A stretch of 64,000 nt of DNA, taken from assembly GCA_036002485.1 (NCBI GenBank), contig DASYTI010000019.1:11990-75989 (forward strand), in the 5' to 3' direction. The notes under the pieces were generated by a model that ran no database searches, was not told the DNA's origin, and saw nothing but the letters and a program-made list of their open reading frames with translations. The stretch's first letter is position 1. Each line of letters begins with the position of its first letter. This DNA is from Candidatus Methylomirabilota bacterium. GTDB taxonomy: Bacteria; Methylomirabilota; Methylomirabilia; Rokubacteriales; CSP1-6. Made by a program: the position numbers and the translations under genes. Shown piece after piece: positions 30,124 to 64,000 of this stretch.

Positions 30124-30452
30124 GCCGGCACGCCATCCGGGCGGCCCTCGCCACGAAGACCGGGCATTCGAAACCGTAGGATGTTGTAGGGGAACCCGAC
30201 AGTAGCACGAGAGAGTTACCCGACGGAATTCACGAGCAATGGCAGTCGTTTGCCCAGATACCAGGGAAAATCATCCAACGATGTTCCAGCGAGAACGTCG
30301 GAAGAGTTTACGCGCAACCAATAGATCATTTGCCAATTGAACTGAAGTTGCTGTTTTGACGGCTTATTCCTTCGTACGACCATCTTGGCATAGTGTCTGC
30401 TCATACTCGTGGCCGGTGTCGAACTTGACCGTAAAAGGAGCTACGTGACCCT

Positions 30453-44876: not shown

Positions 44877-45314
44877 GTTCGCCCGTTCCTTTCTGGCTAG
44901 TTCAGCGGGCGCTTCCCTGAGAGCGAACCCCCCGCCCTCTGTGGGTGTGGCCGAAAGTTGCGCTCAGTATAGTGGTCCGTGTCGCGGCAAGTCAAGAGAA
45001 TTGGGGCCAATTGATCGTTCAGAGCCATTGAAATCATTCGACTTTTCCCACTTCCTCCCTTCGGCAACACCGATGGGTCTCAGCGATGAAACCCAATGCC
45101 CAAGAGACCCGTTCCTCGCCCATCCTAGATGGGTCTCTACCTTCTGAGCATAAGGGAAGCACGTTCGGTGCCATCGTCTCGGGCCGACGAGAACGCCCGA
45201 CCGAGGGCCGAATAGCGCATGAGTTCGCGATGATATTGCGGATTCGTTGAGCAACCGGCGATCCACGTCGGCGCGTGACGCGCCATGTGTCGGTCTTTTT
45301 GATATAAGGGCTCC

Positions 45315-57751: not shown

Positions 57752-59893
57752 TTGACCCAGCTCGAGACGCTCATAGAGGAGATCCCGAAGTACCAGCCGG
57801 GCGCGAACCTGGATCTGGTCAACCGCGCCTACCGCTTCTCCGAGCTCAGCCACCGCGGCCAGCAGCGCGCCTCGGGTGAGCCGTACCTCTCGCACCCCCT
57901 GGAAGTCGCCGGCCTCCTCGTGAACTTCAAGATGGACGTGACGACGGTTACCGCCGGCCTCCTTCACGACGTGCTCGAAGACACCGAGGCGACCAAGGAC
58001 GATCTCGAGCGAGAGTTCGGCCGGGAGATCGCCGACCTCGTGGACGGCGTGACCAAGATCGGCAAGCTCGCCTTCTCGTCGCGCGAGGAGCGGCAGGCCG
58101 AGAACTTCCGGAAGATGGTCGTGGCCATGGCCCACGACCTGCGCGTGCTCATGATCAAGCTGGCCGACCGTCTCCACAACATGCGCACCCTCGACTACCT
58201 CCCGCCCGACAAGGGGCGGAAGATCGCCCAGGAGACGCTCGACATCTACGCGCCCCTGGCCCACCGTCTCGGCATGGCCAAGGTCAAGGCCGAGCTGGAG
58301 GACCTGGCCCTCCGGGTCATGCAGCCCGAGGACTACCAGGACCTGATGCGCCGGGTGGCCAAGCGCCGCCTCGAGCGCGAGGCCGAGATCAACCAGCTCA
58401 TCGCCATCCTCCAGGAGAAGCTGGGGGAGGTGGACATCGAGTCGAAGATCGCCGGGCGGCCCAAGCACTTCTACTCGATCTGGAAGAAGATGCACGAAGG
58501 GGGGCGCGAGTTCGACGAGATCTACGATCTCACCGCCGTGCGCGTGCTCACCAAGACCGTGCGCGACTGCTACGGTGCCCTGGGCGTGATCCACTCGCTC
58601 TGGAAGCCCGTGCCCGGCCGCTTCAAGGACTTCATCGCCATGCCCAAGGTCAACATGTACCAGTCGCTCCACACCACGGTCATCGGGCCCAAGGGCGATC
58701 CGGTCGAGATCCAGATCCGAACCTGGGACATGCACCGGGTGGCAGAGGAGGGGATCGCCGCGCACTGGCTCTACAAGGAGAAGAAGAGCGAGCGCGACCG
58801 CTTCGACGAGGCCTTCGTGTGGCTCCGGCAGCTCGTGGAGTCGCAGAGCGATCTCAAGGACTCGCAGGAGTTTCTCGACTCGGTCCGTCTCGATCTCTTT
58901 CCCGACGAGGTCTACGTCTTCACCCCCAAGGGCGACGTCAAGGCGCTCCCGGAAGGCTCGACGCCGCTCGACTTCGCGTACGCCGTCCACACCGACGTGG
59001 GCCACCATTGTGTGGGCGCCAAGGTCAACGGCAAGCTGGTGCCCCTCCGCTACACCCTGCGCCAGGGCGATATCGTCGAGATCGTCGCCTCGCCCACCCA
59101 GCACCCGAGCCGCGACTGGCTCAAGATCGTCAAGTCGAGCCGCTCCAAGGCCAAGATCAACCAGTGGCTGAAGATCGAGGAGCGCGCCCGCTCTCTCGAG
59201 CTCGGCCGCGAGCTCTTCGACCGGGAGGCCAAGAAGTATCGGCTGGTCCCCGCCACGCTCCTGGCCTCGGAGGAGATGAAGAAGCTCCTCGTGGAGCTCG
59301 GCTTCTCCTCGGCCGACGACCTGCTCGCCTCCGTGGGCTATGGCAAGAGCTCGGTGCACCAGGTCCTGGGCAAGCTCGCGCCCGCCGTGGTCCACGACGA
59401 GCCCGCGCCCGACCGGACGGCCAAGGCGCCGCGCAAGGCCGAGGGCGCTGTTCGCATCCGGGGCGTGGACGACGTGCTCGTGCGCTTCGGCAAGTGCTGC
59501 TCGCCCGTGCCGGGCGACGGCATCGTGGGCTTCATCACACGGGGCCGAGGACTGACGGTGCACGCGCGCGACTGCCTGACCGTAGTCAAGAACGTGCTCG
59601 ACAAGGAGCGGCTGGTGGCCGTGGAGTGGGACGGGGGCGAGCCCGCCACGCGCCCGGTCAAGATCGCCGTCTACATCGGGCGCGACCGTCCCGGCCTCCT
59701 CGCCGAGATCACCGCGGCCATTTCCTCGCGCCACGGCAACATCACCAAGGCGGAGATCACCGTCACCGACGACCGGAAGGGCATCAACCATTTTGTCATC
59801 GAGGTGGAGGACCTTCAGCAGCTGCAGGGCATCATGCAGAGCATCCGCGAAGTGAAGGACATCGTGAACGTGGAAAGAGTCCGCGGGCTCTAG
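57752..59893 (+). CDS. relA: Bifunctional (p)ppGpp synthetase/hydrolase (RelA/SpoT/Rel)
   Basis: HD hydrolase domain (HPLEVAGLL..HDVLEDT), synthetase domain, TGS, and ACT (GLLAEITAAISS). TTG start with GGAGGG RBS. Confidence 0.92.
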   Translation: MTQLETLIEEIPKYQPGANLDLVNRAYRFSELSHRGQQRASGEPYLSHPLEVAGLLVNFKMDVTTVTAGLLHDVLEDTEATKDDLEREFGREIADLVDGVTKIGKLAFSSREERQAENFRKMVVAMAHDLRVLMIKLADRLHNMRTLDYLPPDKGRKIAQETLDIYAPLAHRLGMAKVKAELEDLALRVMQPEDYQDLMRRVAKRRLEREAEINQLIAILQEKLGEVDIESKIAGRPKHFYSIWKKMHEGGREFDEIYDLTAVRVLTKTVRDCYGALGVIHSLWKPVPGRFKDFIAMPKVNMYQSLHTTVIGPKGDPVEIQIRTWDMHRVAEEGIAAHWLYKEKKSERDRFDEAFVWLRQLVESQSDLKDSQEFLDSVRLDLFPDEVYVFTPKGDVKALPEGSTPLDFAYAVHTDVGHHCVGAKVNGKLVPLRYTLRQGDIVEIVASPTQHPSRDWLKIVKSSRSKAKINQWLKIEERARSLELGRELFDREAKKYRLVPATLLASEEMKKLLVELGFSSADDLLASVGYGKSSVHQVLGKLAPAVVHDEPAPDRTAKAPRKAEGAVRIRGVDDVLVRFGKCCSPVPGDGIVGFITRGRGLTVHARDCLTVVKNVLDKERLVAVEWDGGEPATRPVKIAVYIGRDRPGLLAEITAAISSRHGNITKAEITVTDDRKGINHFVIEVEDLQQLQGIMQSIREVKDIVNVERVRGL

Positions 59894-59917
59894 TCCGCCG
59901 CCCCTCGCCGTTCCGCC

Positions 59918-60289
59918 ATGACGCACACGGAGTTCGAGACGCTCGTCGAGCGGGCCCTCCGTACCTTGCCCCGCCGGTTCAAAGACAAGATCAGCAACGT
60001 GGCCATCGTGGTGGAGGACTGGGCGGACGAGGAGACCCTGGAGCAGGTCGGCATCGAGCCGCCCGACACCCTCTACGGCCTCTACCGGGGCATCGATCTC
60101 ACCCGCCGCGACACCTCCTACGGCAATGTCCTGCCGGACACGATCCACATCTATCAAGGGCCGATCGAGGAGGACTGCGCCGATGCCGAGGAGATGGCCG
60201 AGCTCGTGCGCGACACCGTGATCCACGAGATCGGACACTATTTCGGTCTCGATGACGACACCATGGAAGACATCGAAGGCCACGAGTAG
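59918..60289 (+). CDS. Metallopeptidase-like protein (PF06262-type, HExxH)
   Basis: 123 aa, with HEIGHYFG zinc-binding motif. Confidence 0.7.
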   Translation: MTHTEFETLVERALRTLPRRFKDKISNVAIVVEDWADEETLEQVGIEPPDTLYGLYRGIDLTRRDTSYGNVLPDTIHIYQGPIEEDCADAEEMAELVRDTVIHEIGHYFGLDDDTMEDIEGHE

Positions 60290-60366
60290 TCGCCGGGCCG
60301 ATCTGCTTCGCCTGGATTTCCCCGTTCCGTCCCCGGTTGTCCGCCCGCTTCGGCTAAGTTTTTTGC

Positions 60367-60395
60367 TTGACAGCATTTTCATTTGTCCTTATGGT
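60367..60395 (+). promoter_or_regulatory. Near-consensus sigma70 promoter (TTGACA, 17-bp spacer, TATGGT) with an A/T-rich UP-like tract
   Basis: ttgaca-gcattttcatttgtcct-tatggt lies in an AT-rich island 40-70 nt upstream of the ATG at 60433. Confidence 0.55.
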
Positions 60396-60432
60396 TTCAG
60401 CGTACGCTGAAAATTATGGAACAAGTGAAACG

Positions 60433-61479
60433 ATGGACAAAACGCAGAGTATCGTGCGGTCAGCGGCCCAGTGGCTTCGGGACCTCCTTCCGAAAGCCAC
60501 CGGTTGGGAGGAGCATGCCGGTTTCAAGGTCGGCAGCCAAAGGGCCGATCTCGTGATCAAATTCAAATTCGGCGGAGAAGAGCAGACGCTGCTTCTCGAA
60601 ATCACTTCGCTCGGTCAGCCCCGCCAGATCCGGGAGACCATCACCCGTTTGGGGGAGCTGCGCGCCGAACTGGGCGGGGCCTATCCGGTGGCCGTGGCGC
60701 AATACATCAGCCCCCAGGGCGCGGGCATCCTGAAACGGAACGGTCTCGGATATCTCGATCTCTCGGGAAATTGCCATCTGGCCTTTGGCAATGTGCTCAT
60801 CGAGAAGGAAGGCAAGCCCAATCTCCGGCCCTCGACGCGGCCGCTCAAGTCGCTCTTCGCGCCGCGCGCGACGCGCGTGATCCGGGCCCTCCTTGCCGAG
60901 CCCGCCCGCCTGTGGCGGCTCGATGAGCTCGCCAAGGCCTCGCAGGTCAGCCTCGGCCACGCGCACAACGTGGTCAAGCGCCTCGTCGAGCTCGCCTGGC
61001 TGGATCGGGGCGAGCAGCAGCGGATCCAGCTCAGCAAGCCCGCCGACCTCCTCGACGCATGGGTCGACGCCTACACGTACCGCCTCAACGAGGTCTCCAC
61101 CTACTTCTCTCCCGAGCGGATCACCCGCAAGCTCGTGGGCGAGCTCGCCCGCGTTGCTCAGGAGGAGGGCCGGCGCTTCGCTTTCACGCTCCATTCCGGC
61201 GCCGCCCTCGTCGCGCCCAACGTCCGGTTCCCGGCTATCCACTGCTATCTCGAAGGCGATCCCGAGCCGGTGGCGAGGGTGCTGGGGCTGAGACCGGGTG
61301 ATGACGGGGGTAATGTGCACCTGCTCGCGCCCTATGATCCTGGCGTCTTCCACGCGCCCATAACGAAAAGCGGCGTGCCCGTGGTGTGCCTGCCCCAGCT
61401 CTATGCCGATCTCTATCACTATGAGCGGCGTGGCCGTGAACAAGCGGCCCATATCCGCCGCGAAGCCATGGGCTTCTAG
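60433..61479 (+). CDS. Hypothetical protein with central winged-helix DNA-binding region (possibly AbiEi-like)
   Basis: 348 aa. wHTH-like LDELAKASQVSLGHAHNVVKRLVELAWL. A near-consensus sigma70 promoter sits upstream. No family assigned with confidence. Confidence 0.6.
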   Translation: MDKTQSIVRSAAQWLRDLLPKATGWEEHAGFKVGSQRADLVIKFKFGGEEQTLLLEITSLGQPRQIRETITRLGELRAELGGAYPVAVAQYISPQGAGILKRNGLGYLDLSGNCHLAFGNVLIEKEGKPNLRPSTRPLKSLFAPRATRVIRALLAEPARLWRLDELAKASQVSLGHAHNVVKRLVELAWLDRGEQQRIQLSKPADLLDAWVDAYTYRLNEVSTYFSPERITRKLVGELARVAQEEGRRFAFTLHSGAALVAPNVRFPAIHCYLEGDPEPVARVLGLRPGDDGGNVHLLAPYDPGVFHAPITKSGVPVVCLPQLYADLYHYERRGREQAAHIRREAMGF

Positions 61480-61503
61480 GCGGGGAAGGGAGGTGACGCT
61501 TCT

Positions 61504-61575
61504 ATGAAGAAGAAAGCCAAGAAGAAGAGCGCAAAGAAGCGCAAGAAGGCGACGAAGAAGGGGCGGCGGCGGTAG
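61504..61575 (+). CDS. Micro-ORF encoding a 23-aa polybasic peptide MKKKAKKKSAKKRKKATKKGRRR
   Basis: GGGAAGGGAGGTGA Shine-Dalgarno sequence 7 nt upstream of the ATG. Immediately follows the hypothetical gene. Confidence 0.4.
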   Translation: MKKKAKKKSAKKRKKATKKGRRR

Positions 61576-61589
61576 CCGACGTCGAGCGT

Positions 61590-61690
61590 TCGAGTCGAGA
61601 CGGTGCCCGATGTTCGAGTTGAGCGGCGAAGCCGCGAGACGAGGGCTGGGTTGATCCCGCAGGCGTGGCAGTTCGGCTGAGTTGACGAAC
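61590..61690 (+). repeat. Copy (about 1.5 units) of the ~45-bp repeat family between the two micro-ORFs
   Basis: tgttcgagttgagcggcgaagccgcgagacgagggctgggttga matches unit 1 of the array at 21541. Confidence 0.65.
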
Positions 61691-61715
61691 GCAGCGGAAA
61701 GGGGGTGACTTCCTA

Positions 61716-61757
61716 ATGGCGAAGAAGAAGAAGGCGGCCAAGAAGAAGAAGAAGTAG
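61716..61757 (+). CDS. Micro-ORF encoding a 13-aa polybasic peptide MAKKKKAAKKKKK
   Basis: GGGGGTGA Shine-Dalgarno sequence 7 nt upstream. Paralogous in architecture to 61504..61575. Confidence 0.3.
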   Translation: MAKKKKAAKKKKK

Positions 61758-62018
61758 CGTGATCGGTCGGTGGGAGGTGGCGGCCTTCCATCGACGCGTT
61801 CCACGCTCTGTGAGCAGGTCACCCGGCGGGGGGCGGCAACGCTCCTCGCCGGGCTCCTGTTTCCCGGCTAGACGCAGGAGTCTGTCTCAGTAATCTCGAT
61901 GCCCTCACGAGCAGGAATGTCACATTTCGAGCGCCGGCTTCGCCGGCCCAGTTCTCGGATTGCTCGCCTCGGGCGGCGGGGCCCCAGCCCCGCGACGTCC
62001 TCCGGCTCGCACTGGGTC

Positions 62019-62060
62019 GGGGGGAGGCCCCGGAAGGGGGGCGGAGCCCCCCTCCGAGTT
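62019..62060. repeat. GC-rich palindromic hairpin repeat (REP-like), copy 2
   Basis: cggggggaggccccggaaggggggcggagcccccctccgagtt. Directly abuts the rpmB stop codon. The stem GGGGGGC/GCCCCCC is conserved, the loop differs. Confidence 0.7.
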
Positions 62061-62062
62061 CT

Positions 62063-62260
62063 CTAGACGACCTTGACGACCTTTCCGGCTTTCAGGCAGC
62101 GAGTGCAGACGCGCAGGCGCTGGACGGTGCCCGCGTCGCCGATCTTGCCCCGCATCGAGACGAGGTTGACGAGCCAGCGCCGCTTCGTGACATTGTGGGC
62201 GTGACTGATCTTGTGGCCGACGGACGGGCCTTTCCCGCACACATCGCAACGCTGAGCCAT
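62063..62260 (-). CDS. rpmB: 50S ribosomal protein L28
   Basis: MAQRCDVCGKGPSVGHKISHAHNVTKRRWLVNLVSMRGKIGDAGTVQRLRVCTRCLKAGKVVKVV. Hidden inside the long track ORF 62063..62713. Confidence 0.88.
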   Translation of the reverse strand: MAQRCDVCGKGPSVGHKISHAHNVTKRRWLVNLVSMRGKIGDAGTVQRLRVCTRCLKAGKVVKVV

Positions 62261-62342
62261 GCCGACTCCTTGAGGGGATCTGCGCCTGATTTGCCGGACG
62301 CGAGGCCCTTTTATAGCATGATCGGGTGAGCGGAGCAACGAC

Positions 62343-64000
62343 TTGACCCCCACCGGCCCACGATCCCTCGGCGCGGCGTCTGAGCCCGCGGCCAAGCCCG
62401 GGCCCCGCACGCGTCTGGAGGCGCTTCCCGGAGTCGGCCCGCAGCGCGCGAAGCTCCTCGCCAAGCTCGGACTCGTCACCATCGAGGACGCGCTCGGCCA
62501 GCACCTGCCCAGCCGACACGAGGACCGCAGCCAGATCCTCCCCCTCGGGCGTCTCACGGTGGGCGAGGCGCGCACGTGCGCCGGTACCATCGCGGGGATC
62601 AGCCCTCCCCCGAGGGGACGGCCGCGCATGCCCTTGACCGTCATGATCCGCGACGCCAGCGGCTTCCTCCGCTGCGTCTGGTTCAACCAGCCGTACCTGG
62701 CGCGAGTCTTCAAGCGCGGGCAGTACCTGATCGTGCACGGAAAAGTCCAGCCCTATGGCCGTGGTCCCCTCCAGATGCAGGTCAAGGACTACGAGCTCGT
62801 CGAAGACGAGGAGGACGAGACGCTCCACACGGGCCGGCTCGTCCCCGTCTATCCGGCCACCGAGGGCCTGACCCAGCGCCCCCTGCGTCGTTTGATGAAG
62901 CGTCTCGTAGACGGATGGGCCGATACGATCGAAGATCCATTGCCGGCGACCGTCCGCGAGAAGCTCGGCCTTCTGCCCCTGGGCCAGGCCATTCGGGGCG
63001 CTCATTTCCCGGATACGGATGCCTCGCAGTCCCTGGCCCGCGGCCGACTCGTCTTCGACGATTTCTTTCTCCTGGAGATCGGCCTCGCCCTTCGCCGGCA
63101 CCGTGAGGGCCGTCGGCGCGGCCTCGCCATGAATCCCCGGGGCGACCTGGCCCAACGTCTGCTCGCGGGGCTGCCCTACACGCTGACGGCCGCCCAGGAG
63201 CGCGTCCGGCGCGAGATCAAGATGGACATGGCCGAGCCCTATCCCATGAACCGCCTGCTCCAGGGCGACGTCGGCTCGGGCAAGACCGTGGTGGCGGCGT
63301 TGGCCATGGTCACGGCCATCGAAGCCGGCTACCAGGCGGCCCTCATGGCTCCCACGGAAATCCTGGCCGAGCAGCACATGATGACGCTGCAGGCGCTCCT
63401 CGAGCCCCTGGGCGCGCGCGTCGTCCTGCTCACCAGCGCGGTCAAGGGCAAGGCCCGACAGGCGGCCGTGGAGGCCGTGGAGAGCGGCGCGGCCGCCTGC
63501 GCCGTGGGCACCCACGCCCTCGTGCAGGGGGGCGTGGCCTTCAAGCGGCTGGGTCTCGCCGTCATCGACGAGCAGCACCGCTTCGGGGTGGGGCATCGCG
63601 CGGCCCTCCGCGGCAAGGCCGAGAGTCCCGACGTCCTCGTCATGACGGCCACGCCGATCCCGCGCACCCTCGCCCTCACCCTCTACGGCGACCTCGACGT
63701 CTCCGTGCTCGACGAGCTGCCGCCCGGGCGCAAGCCGGTGCGCACGGAGGCTCGCGAGGAGAAGGCCCGGCAGAAGATCTACGCCTTCCTTCGCGACGAG
63801 ATGACGGCGGGCCGGCAGGTCTACGTCGTCTGCCCGCTCGTCGAGGAATCCGAGGTCTCGGATCTCCGCGCCGCCACCGAGGTGGCCGAGCGGCTGCAGG
63901 GGCAGGTGTTCCCGGAGCGTCGCGTGGGACTGATCCACGGCCGGCTGGGTTTCCTGGAGAAGGAGCGCGTCATGCGGGAGTTCAAGGAGGGCGCCCTCCA
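62343..64000 (+). CDS. recG: ATP-dependent DNA helicase RecG (5' part, continues beyond window)
   Basis: Wedge/OB region, then helicase motif I GDVGSGKT, motif II VIDEQHRFG, motif III MTATPIPRT. Candidate TTG start with GGAG upstream. No stop before the window end. Confidence 0.85.
   Translation, partial: MTPTGPRSLGAASEPAAKPGPRTRLEALPGVGPQRAKLLAKLGLVTIEDALGQHLPSRHEDRSQILPLGRLTVGEARTCAGTIAGISPPPRGRPRMPLTVMIRDASGFLRCVWFNQPYLARVFKRGQYLIVHGKVQPYGRGPLQMQVKDYELVEDEEDETLHTGRLVPVYPATEGLTQRPLRRLMKRLVDGWADTIEDPLPATVREKLGLLPLGQAIRGAHFPDTDASQSLARGRLVFDDFFLLEIGLALRRHREGRRRGLAMNPRGDLAQRLLAGLPYTLTAAQERVRREIKMDMAEPYPMNRLLQGDVGSGKTVVAALAMVTAIEAGYQAALMAPTEILAEQHMMTLQALLEPLGARVVLLTSAVKGKARQAAVEAVESGAAACAVGTHALVQGGVAFKRLGLAVIDEQHRFGVGHRAALRGKAESPDVLVMTATPIPRTLALTLYGDLDVSVLDELPPGRKPVRTEAREEKARQKIYAFLRDEMTAGRQVYVVCPLVEESEVSDLRAATEVAERLQGQVFPERRVGLIHGRLGFLEKERVMREFKEGAL

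Follow-up and report, generated by a model that had tools for sequence, protein, structure and literature searches.

The window, by which we mean the whole 64,000-nucleotide (nt) stretch of DNA analysed here, carries a gene for a 348-residue protein with a predicted promoter and operator directly 5' of it and two lysine-rich micro-open reading frames (micro-ORFs) 3' of it (Table 1). The protein is an orphan member of the AbiEi_2 family (PF09952, COG4861): its distant relatives are paired with a nucleotidyltransferase toxin gene that is missing from its own locus and from those of its orthologues in Methylomirabilota, which we call the orphan clade. Upstream of the gene lie secDF, relA/spoT (57752-59893) and a Zincin_1 gene (59918-60289). 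Downstream, after the micro-ORFs and two hairpins, come the convergent rpmB (62063-62260, minus strand) and recG.

The start codon is the ATG at 60433, which gives a product of 348 amino acids (aa), and the aligned ATG is kept in 71 of 71 orthologous loci. The initial annotation had placed a 348-aa protein behind TTGACA-17-TATGGT, which our analysis confirms. The mechanically called ORF (60367..61479, 370 aa) opens at a TTG that begins with the first base of the -35 hexamer. Among the orthologues, P0002, P0003, P0005 and other database entries of 362-379 aa carry N-terminal extensions beginning within the promoter/operator (e.g. MF..SAYAENHEIGET-M...). These longer annotations are likely wrong start calls, the conserved start being the 348-aa ATG.

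Table 1. Positions of the features discussed (window coordinates, except in the last row, where coordinates are those of the named locus)
Feature	Position	Strand	Basis or remark
T-tract, UP-element-like (six T)	60359..60364	+	TTTTT run there conserved in most of 71 loci
-35 hexamer TTGACA	60367..60372	+	Promoter scan; exact at 17-bp register in 54/71 loci
Outer left half-site TTTCATTTG, in promoter spacer	60377..60385	+	TTTC core at least 95% conserved; distant relatives have TTTCACTG here
-10 hexamer TATGGT	60390..60395	+	Promoter scan; TAnnnT in 70/71 loci, only positions 3-5 vary
Perfect 18-bp palindrome TTTCAGC-GTAC-GCTGAAA	60395..60412	+	Proposed operator over predicted transcription start
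Outer right half-site CAAGTGAAA, 2 nt 5' of start codon	60422..60430	+	Aligned upstream regions
Coding sequence (CDS), 348 aa + stop	60433..61479	+	Orphan AbiEi_2/COG4861 member; PF09952, >1400 homologues, AlphaFold2
N-terminal domain, residues 1-128	60433..60816	+	PD-(D/E)xK fold, degenerate site, family-invariant GYLDLSGN hairpin
Winged helix-turn-helix (wHTH), residues 144-200	60862..61032	+	Recognition helix VSLGHAHNVVKRL
C-terminal AbiEi_2 domain, residues 203-348	61039..61476	+	Nucleotidyltransferase-like fold, no catalytic motif
Micro-ORF 1, MKKKAKKKSAKKRKKATKKGRRR (23 aa)	61504-61575	+	Shine-Dalgarno AAGGGAGGTGA at 61486-61496; 24 nt past CDS stop
Micro-ORF 2, MAKKKKAAKKKKK (13 aa)	61716-61757	+	Shine-Dalgarno GGAAAGGGGGTGA at 61697-61708
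Conserved hairpin GGTGGGAGG-TGGCGG-CCTTCCATC, directly after micro-ORF 2	61767..61794	+	RNAfold, 12 loci
GC-rich terminator-like hairpin between cassette and convergent rpmB	61822..61853	+	Terminator scan; equivalent in folded relatives
Two-gene modules of toxin-linked relatives	L005 4907-6897; L007 4916-6906; L080 3769-5748; L004 4971-6880		Intact D..ExK, then 275-aa GGW..DVDL nucleotidyltransferase

Family, domains and active site

Residues 199-345 match Pfam AbiEi_2 with 28.8 bits (E 1.8e-6; the gathering score is 21), over profile positions 1-141 of 143, and residues 145-191 match HTH_IclR slightly under the Pfam threshold. A search of 5.8 billion proteins returned more than 1400 homologues, and PF09952 stands in the precomputed annotation of most of those listed. 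The top 120 are 69-93% identical, nearly all exactly 348 aa long and from Methylomirabilota/Rokubacteria assemblies, and some orthologues are already named 'type IV toxin-antitoxin system AbiEi family antitoxin' by NCBI. AbiEi_2 was also matched by 47 of 50 diverse full-length relatives. An exhaustive search of cluster representatives matched 3713 clusters with an E-value of 1e-3 or lower, 415 of them with 1e-30 or lower; many matches are full-length (~350 aa) and 30-45% identical to the window protein. Thus the three-domain protein represents a large family and is not unclassified, as the initial annotation had described it. Searches of NCBIfam with the protein gave noise only, and a PDB sequence search gave no match. 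PADLOC matched no system, its sole match being a weak one to PDC-M05A limited to the wHTH.

An AlphaFold2 model built from 55 diverse sequences (mean predicted local distance difference test score, pLDDT, 93.9) has three domains. In fold searches with this model the N-domain is a NucS-like PD-(D/E)xK domain with the core alpha-beta-beta-beta-alpha-beta present, the winged helix is of the MarR/IclR/ArsR type, and the C-domain resembles minimal Pol-beta-type nucleotidyltransferases. Pfam, the model and the fold searches together bear out the earlier three-domain reading (nuclease-like N-terminus, wHTH, AbiEi-like C-terminus), and the AbiEi-type C-region noted there matches its family above the gathering score. 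Pfam offers no model for the N-terminal PD-(D/E)xK domain that this subfamily carries, and we found no description of it in the literature under the family's names. The C-domain is without the hG[GS]...DxD signature, reading LHSGAAL...AIHCYLE with no DxD. We also considered whether it could be a duplicated, inactivated toxin. Nothing beyond the resemblance in fold speaks for such an origin, which is unsupported because a profile-profile comparison of this protein family with the partner nucleotidyltransferase found no homology (probability 0.4%).

An alignment of 19 close relatives holds more than 100 invariant residues, and the orphan clade keeps the family-invariant GYLDLSGN of an extra hairpin, W210 and, in the C-domain, D302, D326, R333, G334, E336 and A338.

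The catalytic D...(D/E)-x-K triad is incomplete in the window protein, which has D39, E56 and T58 at the three positions, with threonine replacing the catalytic lysine. At position 58, lysine occurs in 0 of 71 orthologues (T, S, A, R or G stands there) versus 184 of 227 distant relatives; glutamate is found at position 56 in 38 of 71 versus 202 of 227. The catalytic aspartate is retained in the orphan clade (D39) and present in 209 of the 227 distant relatives. The nuclease-like D..E motifs pointed out at first (RADLVIKF, LLLEITS) therefore do occupy canonical PD-(D/E)xK positions, but the motif that they form is degenerate, with no lysine in any orthologue. As judged from these alignments, the nuclease active site is eroded in the orphan clade; many other COG4861 antitoxins apparently carry an active PD-(D/E)xK domain. 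A second candidate motif, D109...E126-x-K128 (GYLDLSGN...IEKEGK), was rejected because the model puts its residues in the extra hairpin beyond the core fold and because it is D39/E56/x58 that align with the D..ExK of the wider family.

Promoter and candidate operator

TTGACA-17 bp-TATGGT scores 10/12, and the region 59500-62500 holds two promoter-like sites versus 0.4 expected in shuffled sequence. Across the window it is the sole plus-strand site scoring 10/12 and the sole one with a perfect -35; the other 10/12 sigma-70-like site lies at 44995 on the minus strand (TTGACT-18-TATACT). The window is richest in AT over the 100 nt that begin at 60351, where the GC content is 0.40 versus 0.668 overall. 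The second most AT-rich patch (30240-30400, GC ~0.45) contains no Rfam family at gathering scores.

TTGACA, TAnnnT and the flanking motifs keep a fixed spacing in 71 species-level relatives whose proteins are only 57-93% identical. Where TTGACA is not exact in register, it is mostly shifted by one base or carries a one-base mismatch, and it also occurs 5' of the gene in relatives from other phyla. The near-consensus sigma-70 promoter of the initial annotation is thus conserved far beyond chance. It is not a peculiarity of the host: AT-rich relatives in other phyla have it too, as what appears to be the family's ancestral promoter/operator. This argues that the promoter is an inherited part of the module: a near-consensus AT-rich promoter would be found in a 67% GC genome because it arrived with the module. 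No Shine-Dalgarno sequence precedes the regulator's ATG in the window. The commonest arrangement among the loci has AAGTGAAAC 10 nt 5' of the ATG, and in one subclade a 12-nt insertion creates a GAAGGA Shine-Dalgarno.

The palindrome that overlaps the last -10 base occurs once in the window, against 0.04 matches expected. Its arms are invariant in 71 loci and its position is fixed relative to the -10, while its 4-nt centre takes 13 forms. The outer half-sites are symmetric about 60403.5, which is also the centre of the inner repeat. Across the 71 upstream regions, the conserved block runs in the order T-tract, TTGACA, TTTCA in the spacer, TAnnnT, TTTCAGC-N4-GCTGAAA, CAAGTGAAA and ATG. Modules from other phyla (relatives from Nitrospiraceae, Spirochaetes and Calditrichaceae metagenome-assembled genomes, MAGs) have the same architecture, CTTGACA, N10, TTTCACTG, TAnnnT, TTTTCAGC-N4-GyTGAAA. 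Each orphan locus has one operator copy. Four toxin-linked loci (L005/L006, L007, L080) have two copies, 76 base pairs (bp) apart and flanking the promoter, and L004 has one; the second copy lies beyond the -35 and so would be untranscribed from this promoter. In 1.57 Mb of sequence searched, the repeat is confined to these promoters.

The half-site changes jointly with the recognition helix. Two GC-rich relatives (L204 1-110 and L206 1430-1580) have the palindrome TTTTACC-GTAC-GGTAAAA, with the same geometry and another half-site, and their recognition helices differ as well (ISVRSAHLVINAL, VSLRTAYRVVTTL). L078 has a third half-site variant, TTTAACC / TTCACC. Taken together, the conserved arms, the architecture shared across phyla, the co-variation with the helix and the confinement to these promoters argue that the winged helix recognises this palindrome as its cognate DNA operator. 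The variants of half-site and helix suggest a readable helix-operator code for COG4861 proteins. Autoregulation through inverted repeats in the promoter is established for AbiEi antitoxins (PMC7319586, PMC3985639). An Rfam search of 60200-62400 was negative at E <= 1, as was one of the entire window at gathering scores. On the minus strand, 60413-60440 contains a promoter-like TTGTCC-16-CATAAT (9/12), a mirror of the plus-strand promoter across the palindrome, which may follow from the symmetry alone or may be a divergent/antisense promoter.

An orphan locus, its toxin-linked relatives and the micro-ORFs

A survey of one genome per GTDB species, which covered 4-6 kb of flanking sequence in each, yielded 74 loci. 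About 70 of these are orthologues at 57-93% identity from Methylomirabilota/Rokubacteria MAGs. The convergent rpmB lies 3' of the gene in every orphan-clade locus of sufficient extent. Zincin_1 and relA/spoT lie 5' in most, a few loci lacking them within the flank or having an insertion. A homologue of 55% identity has the same orphan arrangement, and a gap in identity separates confirmed orphan loci (at least 55%) from confirmed toxin-linked ones (at most 42%). Over 50 loci, identity to the window protein rises and falls with the identities of its neighbours relA, zincin and L28 (r = 0.83-0.84), with mean identities of 71% for the window protein, 84% for relA, 77% for zincin and 79% for L28, as predicted by vertical inheritance under purifying selection. 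Nine cassette contigs (L044, L059, L025, L030, L017, L021, L049, L015, L077) are labelled as other taxa, their MAGs being named Nitrosocosmicus, Nitrosotalea (both archaea), Limnocylindria, Dormiibacterota, Acidoferrum, Deferrimicrobiaceae, Binatia, Eisenbacteria and Verrucomicrobiia. They have Methylomirabilota-like neighbour genes, and since their synteny is identical to that of Methylomirabilota loci, these contigs are probably mis-binned.

No homologue of the partner nucleotidyltransferase was found in the window or in the ~70 orthologous loci. By contrast, relatives at 35-42% identity in other phyla have a nucleotidyltransferase gene (275-302 aa) directly 3' in 8 of 8 distinct loci (L004, L005/6, L007, L078, L080, L204, L206, L208), which come from an 8-Mb genome contig, from Nitrospiraceae, Calditrichaceae and Spirochaetes MAGs and from metagenome contigs. 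Thus the adjacency to a DUF1814/COG4849 nucleotidyltransferase that marks the AbiEi_2 bicistronic pair is seen in all of these distant relatives and is missing at the window gene, an antitoxin-like gene that stands alone where an AbiE-type system would have both toxin and antitoxin. Because no nucleotidyltransferase toxin is adjacent, the locus is better not classed among toxin-antitoxin systems or defence modules. The initial suggestion of a defence-related module is unsupported for this copy, which lies in a conserved housekeeping neighbourhood and diverges in step with relA, zincin and L28.

In the toxin-linked modules the partner ORFs are mutually homologous and start 0-13 nt past the regulator or overlap its end; one copy is frameshifted. 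They share the motif GGW...x17...DVDL, then VDLL, and show weak AbiEii/NTP_transf_8 matches. An NCBIfam search with the partner gave no match, and a PDB search with its profile gave only chance matches to DHFR, which we discarded. Several of these modules adjoin integrases, a restriction-modification/AAA cluster, a Fic gene or a helicase-PLD gene. COG4861 was linked to COG4849 (DUF1814) nucleotidyltransferases by Dy et al. 2014 (PMC3985639), and the pairing was revisited in a 2026 preprint that reclassifies AbiE as type VII (bioRxiv 10.64898/2026.01.19.700257). The fusion of nuclease and antitoxin in the toxin-linked relatives appears to be undescribed so far.

In the orphan-clade loci, which were the ones scanned for micro-ORFs, such ORFs take the place that the toxin gene holds in those modules. 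In the window both micro-ORFs are present 3' of the CDS and no toxin gene follows, as the initial annotation had it, and the co-occurrence that it proposed to check holds within the phylum: at least one K/R-rich micro-ORF, mostly two and sometimes three, is found in 72 of the 72 loci whose sequence from the gene to rpmB could be read. We did not find the combination that it had named as refuting it, a confident housekeeping-family match with no micro-ORF association. Most of the 72 loci have a proximal K/R-rich micro-ORF, 12-27 aa long, which usually starts 12-76 nt past the regulator stop, and the spacer is likewise short in most of twelve folded loci. These short spacers make it likely that the micro-ORFs are co-transcribed with the regulator. 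Across the phylum the distal peptide hardly varies from MAKKK(K)A(A/T)KKKKK, and a GGAGG/GGGGG-type Shine-Dalgarno and a start codon stand at nearly every micro-ORF copy. Variants of micro-ORF 1 gave no NCBIfam match, and the peptides match no known family.

The hairpin that follows micro-ORF 2 has a consensus 24-mer, GGTGGGGGGTGGCGGCCTCCCACC, with at least 120 exact metagenome matches, always inside the cassette. Among 120 metagenome contigs, the 348-aa gene lies upstream in 113 of 113 with enough flank, rpmB downstream in 118 of 118 and a micro-ORF is present in 117 of 120. The 5' arm of the hairpin resembles a Shine-Dalgarno (GGGAGGTG) and the 3' arm an anti-Shine-Dalgarno (CCTCC). The spacer between cassette and rpmB is 586 nt in the window, versus ~250-400 nt in most relatives and 383 nt in the closest one (L008); the extra segment (61860-62060) is GC-rich and dense in hairpin-forming sequence.

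An ORF antisense to this region (61502-61822, minus strand; ..GRPPPPT..YFFFFLAAFFFFAI) was considered as an alternative to micro-ORF 2 and the hairpin. It would lie 3' of rpmB on the same strand, and it has 106 aa in the window and 40-44 aa in L002 and L011. Variation by codon position fails to separate the sense and antisense frames. We favour the plus-strand reading because a Shine-Dalgarno and a start codon precede nearly every tandem copy; the antisense ORF is probably a by-product of sense-strand conservation.

A probable domesticated antitoxin and its alternatives

We think it probable that the gene encodes a domesticated, nuclease-dead AbiEi_2 autorepressor that shares a transcript with the poly-lysine micro-ORFs and sets their level. 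The role of regulator, which the initial annotation had offered, is the best supported one. The ancestral state would have been the antitoxin and regulator of a COG4861-COG4849 (AbiE-like) pair with its own sigma-70 promoter and inverted repeats. In the ancestor of Methylomirabilota/Rokubacteria this module would have become fixed 5' of the convergent rpmB, in most cases just behind relA/spoT and the zincin gene. Both the toxin gene and the nuclease lysine would have been lost, the glutamate becoming variable, and one to three poly-lysine micro-ORFs would have come to occupy the toxin's place. The winged helix, presumably as a dimer, would bind TTTCAGC-N4-GCTGAAA, starting from the last -10 base, and the two flanking TTTCA/TGAAA half-sites. 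By analogy with AbiEi antitoxins, the bound protein would repress its own strong promoter. The putative shared transcript would carry micro-ORFs with strong Shine-Dalgarno sequences behind a regulator that has none, and with such a contrast on one transcript the regulator would set the level of the poly-lysine peptides.

Several points weigh against this interpretation. To our knowledge, AbiEi_2/COG4861 proteins have never been characterised experimentally, and the precedent for autoregulation is an analogy to the unrelated COG5340 AbiEi family. The analysis establishes the family membership, the folds, the lack of a toxin gene, the missing catalytic lysine, the synteny across the phylum, the conservation of promoter and operator and the co-variation of operator and recognition helix. 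We infer that the protein binds DNA and represses its promoter, where transcription starts, that the micro-ORFs are co-transcribed, and whatever function the peptides or the conserved C-domain may have. The co-variation of operator and helix comprises 11 loci in three classes. D39 is kept, and E56 is kept in about half of the orthologues, so the N-domain may conceivably retain some nuclease or DNA-binding activity, or an altered form of it. Conservation of the C-domain is no weaker in the orphan clade than in the rest of the family, which a pure autorepressor leaves unexplained and which keeps alive a role as an antitoxin in trans. Finally, the survey covered 4-6 kb of flanking sequence in each genome, and a toxin gene or more operators could lie beyond it.

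There is some chance, though a small one, that the locus is a switch derived from a toxin-antitoxin system whose payload is the ultra-short poly-lysine peptides (12-27 aa), which all sampled Methylomirabilota would produce from strong ribosome-binding sites. The former antitoxin would control their production through the ancestral operator, and its C-domain would either recognise a small molecule or have the peptides as its target. If so, the peptides, encoded beside rpmB and relA, might form a novel class of microproteins that bind nucleic acids or associate with ribosomes.

It is also possible, if doubtful, that the protein serves as an antitoxin in trans against a COG4849/DUF1814 toxin encoded elsewhere or brought by plasmids or phages, in an anti-addiction or anti-defence role that would be compatible with autoregulation. 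Such a role would fit the high conservation of the AbiEi_2 C-domain and of the family-wide invariant residues, and orphan antitoxins are a recognised category (PMC10790755, PMC11541004). However, a partner homologue is missing from the window and from the 4-6 kb around the gene in ~70 genomes, and the gene does not follow mobile elements but stays at a single housekeeping locus, where its divergence parallels that of the adjacent genes.

We consider it improbable that the palindromes represent RNA structure, such as a hairpin in the 5' untranslated region governing translation or stability, in place of a protein-binding DNA operator. The nested repeats could fold and end 2 nt 5' of a start codon with no Shine-Dalgarno; conserved arms around a variable 4-nt centre would also suit a stem-loop, and an A-to-G change in the outer left arm would preserve G-U pairing. 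However, the -10 abuts the inner repeat and the predicted start lies inside it, so that the 5' arm would be untranscribed, and several toxin-linked relatives have a second copy 5' of the -35. In addition, the outer arms beyond the TTTCA core vary on one side without compensation, for example TTTCAACTT versus CAAGTGAAA in 8 loci. It is the start within the repeat, the untranscribed upstream copy and this uncompensated variation that make an RNA hairpin less likely. The change of half-site with the recognition helix and the lack of an Rfam match also speak against it.

An active defence or nuclease effector of some unknown type is very improbable. The N-domain does have a genuine PD-(D/E)xK fold, relatives adjoin integrases, restriction-modification/AAA and helicase-PLD genes in contexts like those of mobile or defence elements, and PADLOC gives its weak PDC-M05A match at the wHTH. 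Yet the catalytic lysine occurs in 0 of 71 orthologues and the glutamate is gone in about half, there is no second gene and no PADLOC system, and the position in the core genome, the conserved synteny and the vertical divergence are not those of such an effector. A functionless, decaying remnant of a dead toxin-antitoxin module, which toxin loss and an eroded nuclease motif would fit, has next to no chance and is effectively refuted by the intact frame of almost exactly 348 aa in hundreds of clusters, the 100 and more invariant residues (19 sequences), the phylum-wide conservation of promoter and operator and the synteny fixed in 72 genome loci and 113 metagenome contigs.

If we are right about autoregulation by a domesticated antitoxin, the locus is a phylum-wide example of how a toxin-antitoxin component is domesticated, in which regulator, promoter and operator survive while the toxin and the nuclease lysine are lost. 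It would also offer a testable operator code for COG4861 from sequence alone, with 7-bp arms, a 4-bp centre and a half-site that follows the recognition helix. The database label 'Type IV TA antitoxin' misleads when applied to the orthologues in Methylomirabilota, and gene callers have mostly missed the conserved poly-lysine micro-ORFs. The micro-ORFs and the readable operator code of the COG4861 family are the parts most deserving follow-up.

Among known systems, the AbiEi_2/COG4861 + COG4849 pairs resemble the window gene in having the PF09952 C-domain with a wHTH just before it and inverted repeats in the promoter, and relatives 35-42% identical share its length and architecture directly 5' of the nucleotidyltransferase. 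The orphan clade differs in having neither toxin gene nor catalytic lysine, in its fixed housekeeping locus and in its poly-lysine micro-ORFs. AbiEi of Streptococcus agalactiae and MenA3/MenA4 of M. tuberculosis are COG5340 antitoxins of AbiEii/MenT toxins (type IV, lately type VII). Such antitoxins combine a wHTH with a C-terminal antitoxicity domain, are bicistronic with a DUF1814 nucleotidyltransferase and show negative autoregulation by binding inverted repeats in their own promoter (PMC3985639, PMC7319586, bioRxiv 10.64898/2026.01.19.700257). The proposed autorepressor of the window would follow the same logic by analogy. NucS/EndoMS, AF1548, the Can2/Card1 nuclease domains and MspJI are 13-15% identical to the window N-domain, which has threonine for the catalytic lysine and differs further in its extra beta-hairpin (GYLDLSGN...IEKEGK) and its fusion to a wHTH and AbiEi_2. 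Finally, like the orphan antitoxins described before (PMC10790755, PMC11541004), the clade keeps an antitoxin homologue without a cognate toxin. Those are usually strain-variable or plasmid-borne, whereas this clade is fixed phylum-wide at one core-genome locus, with the ancestral promoter/operator intact and conserved micro-ORFs in the toxin's place.

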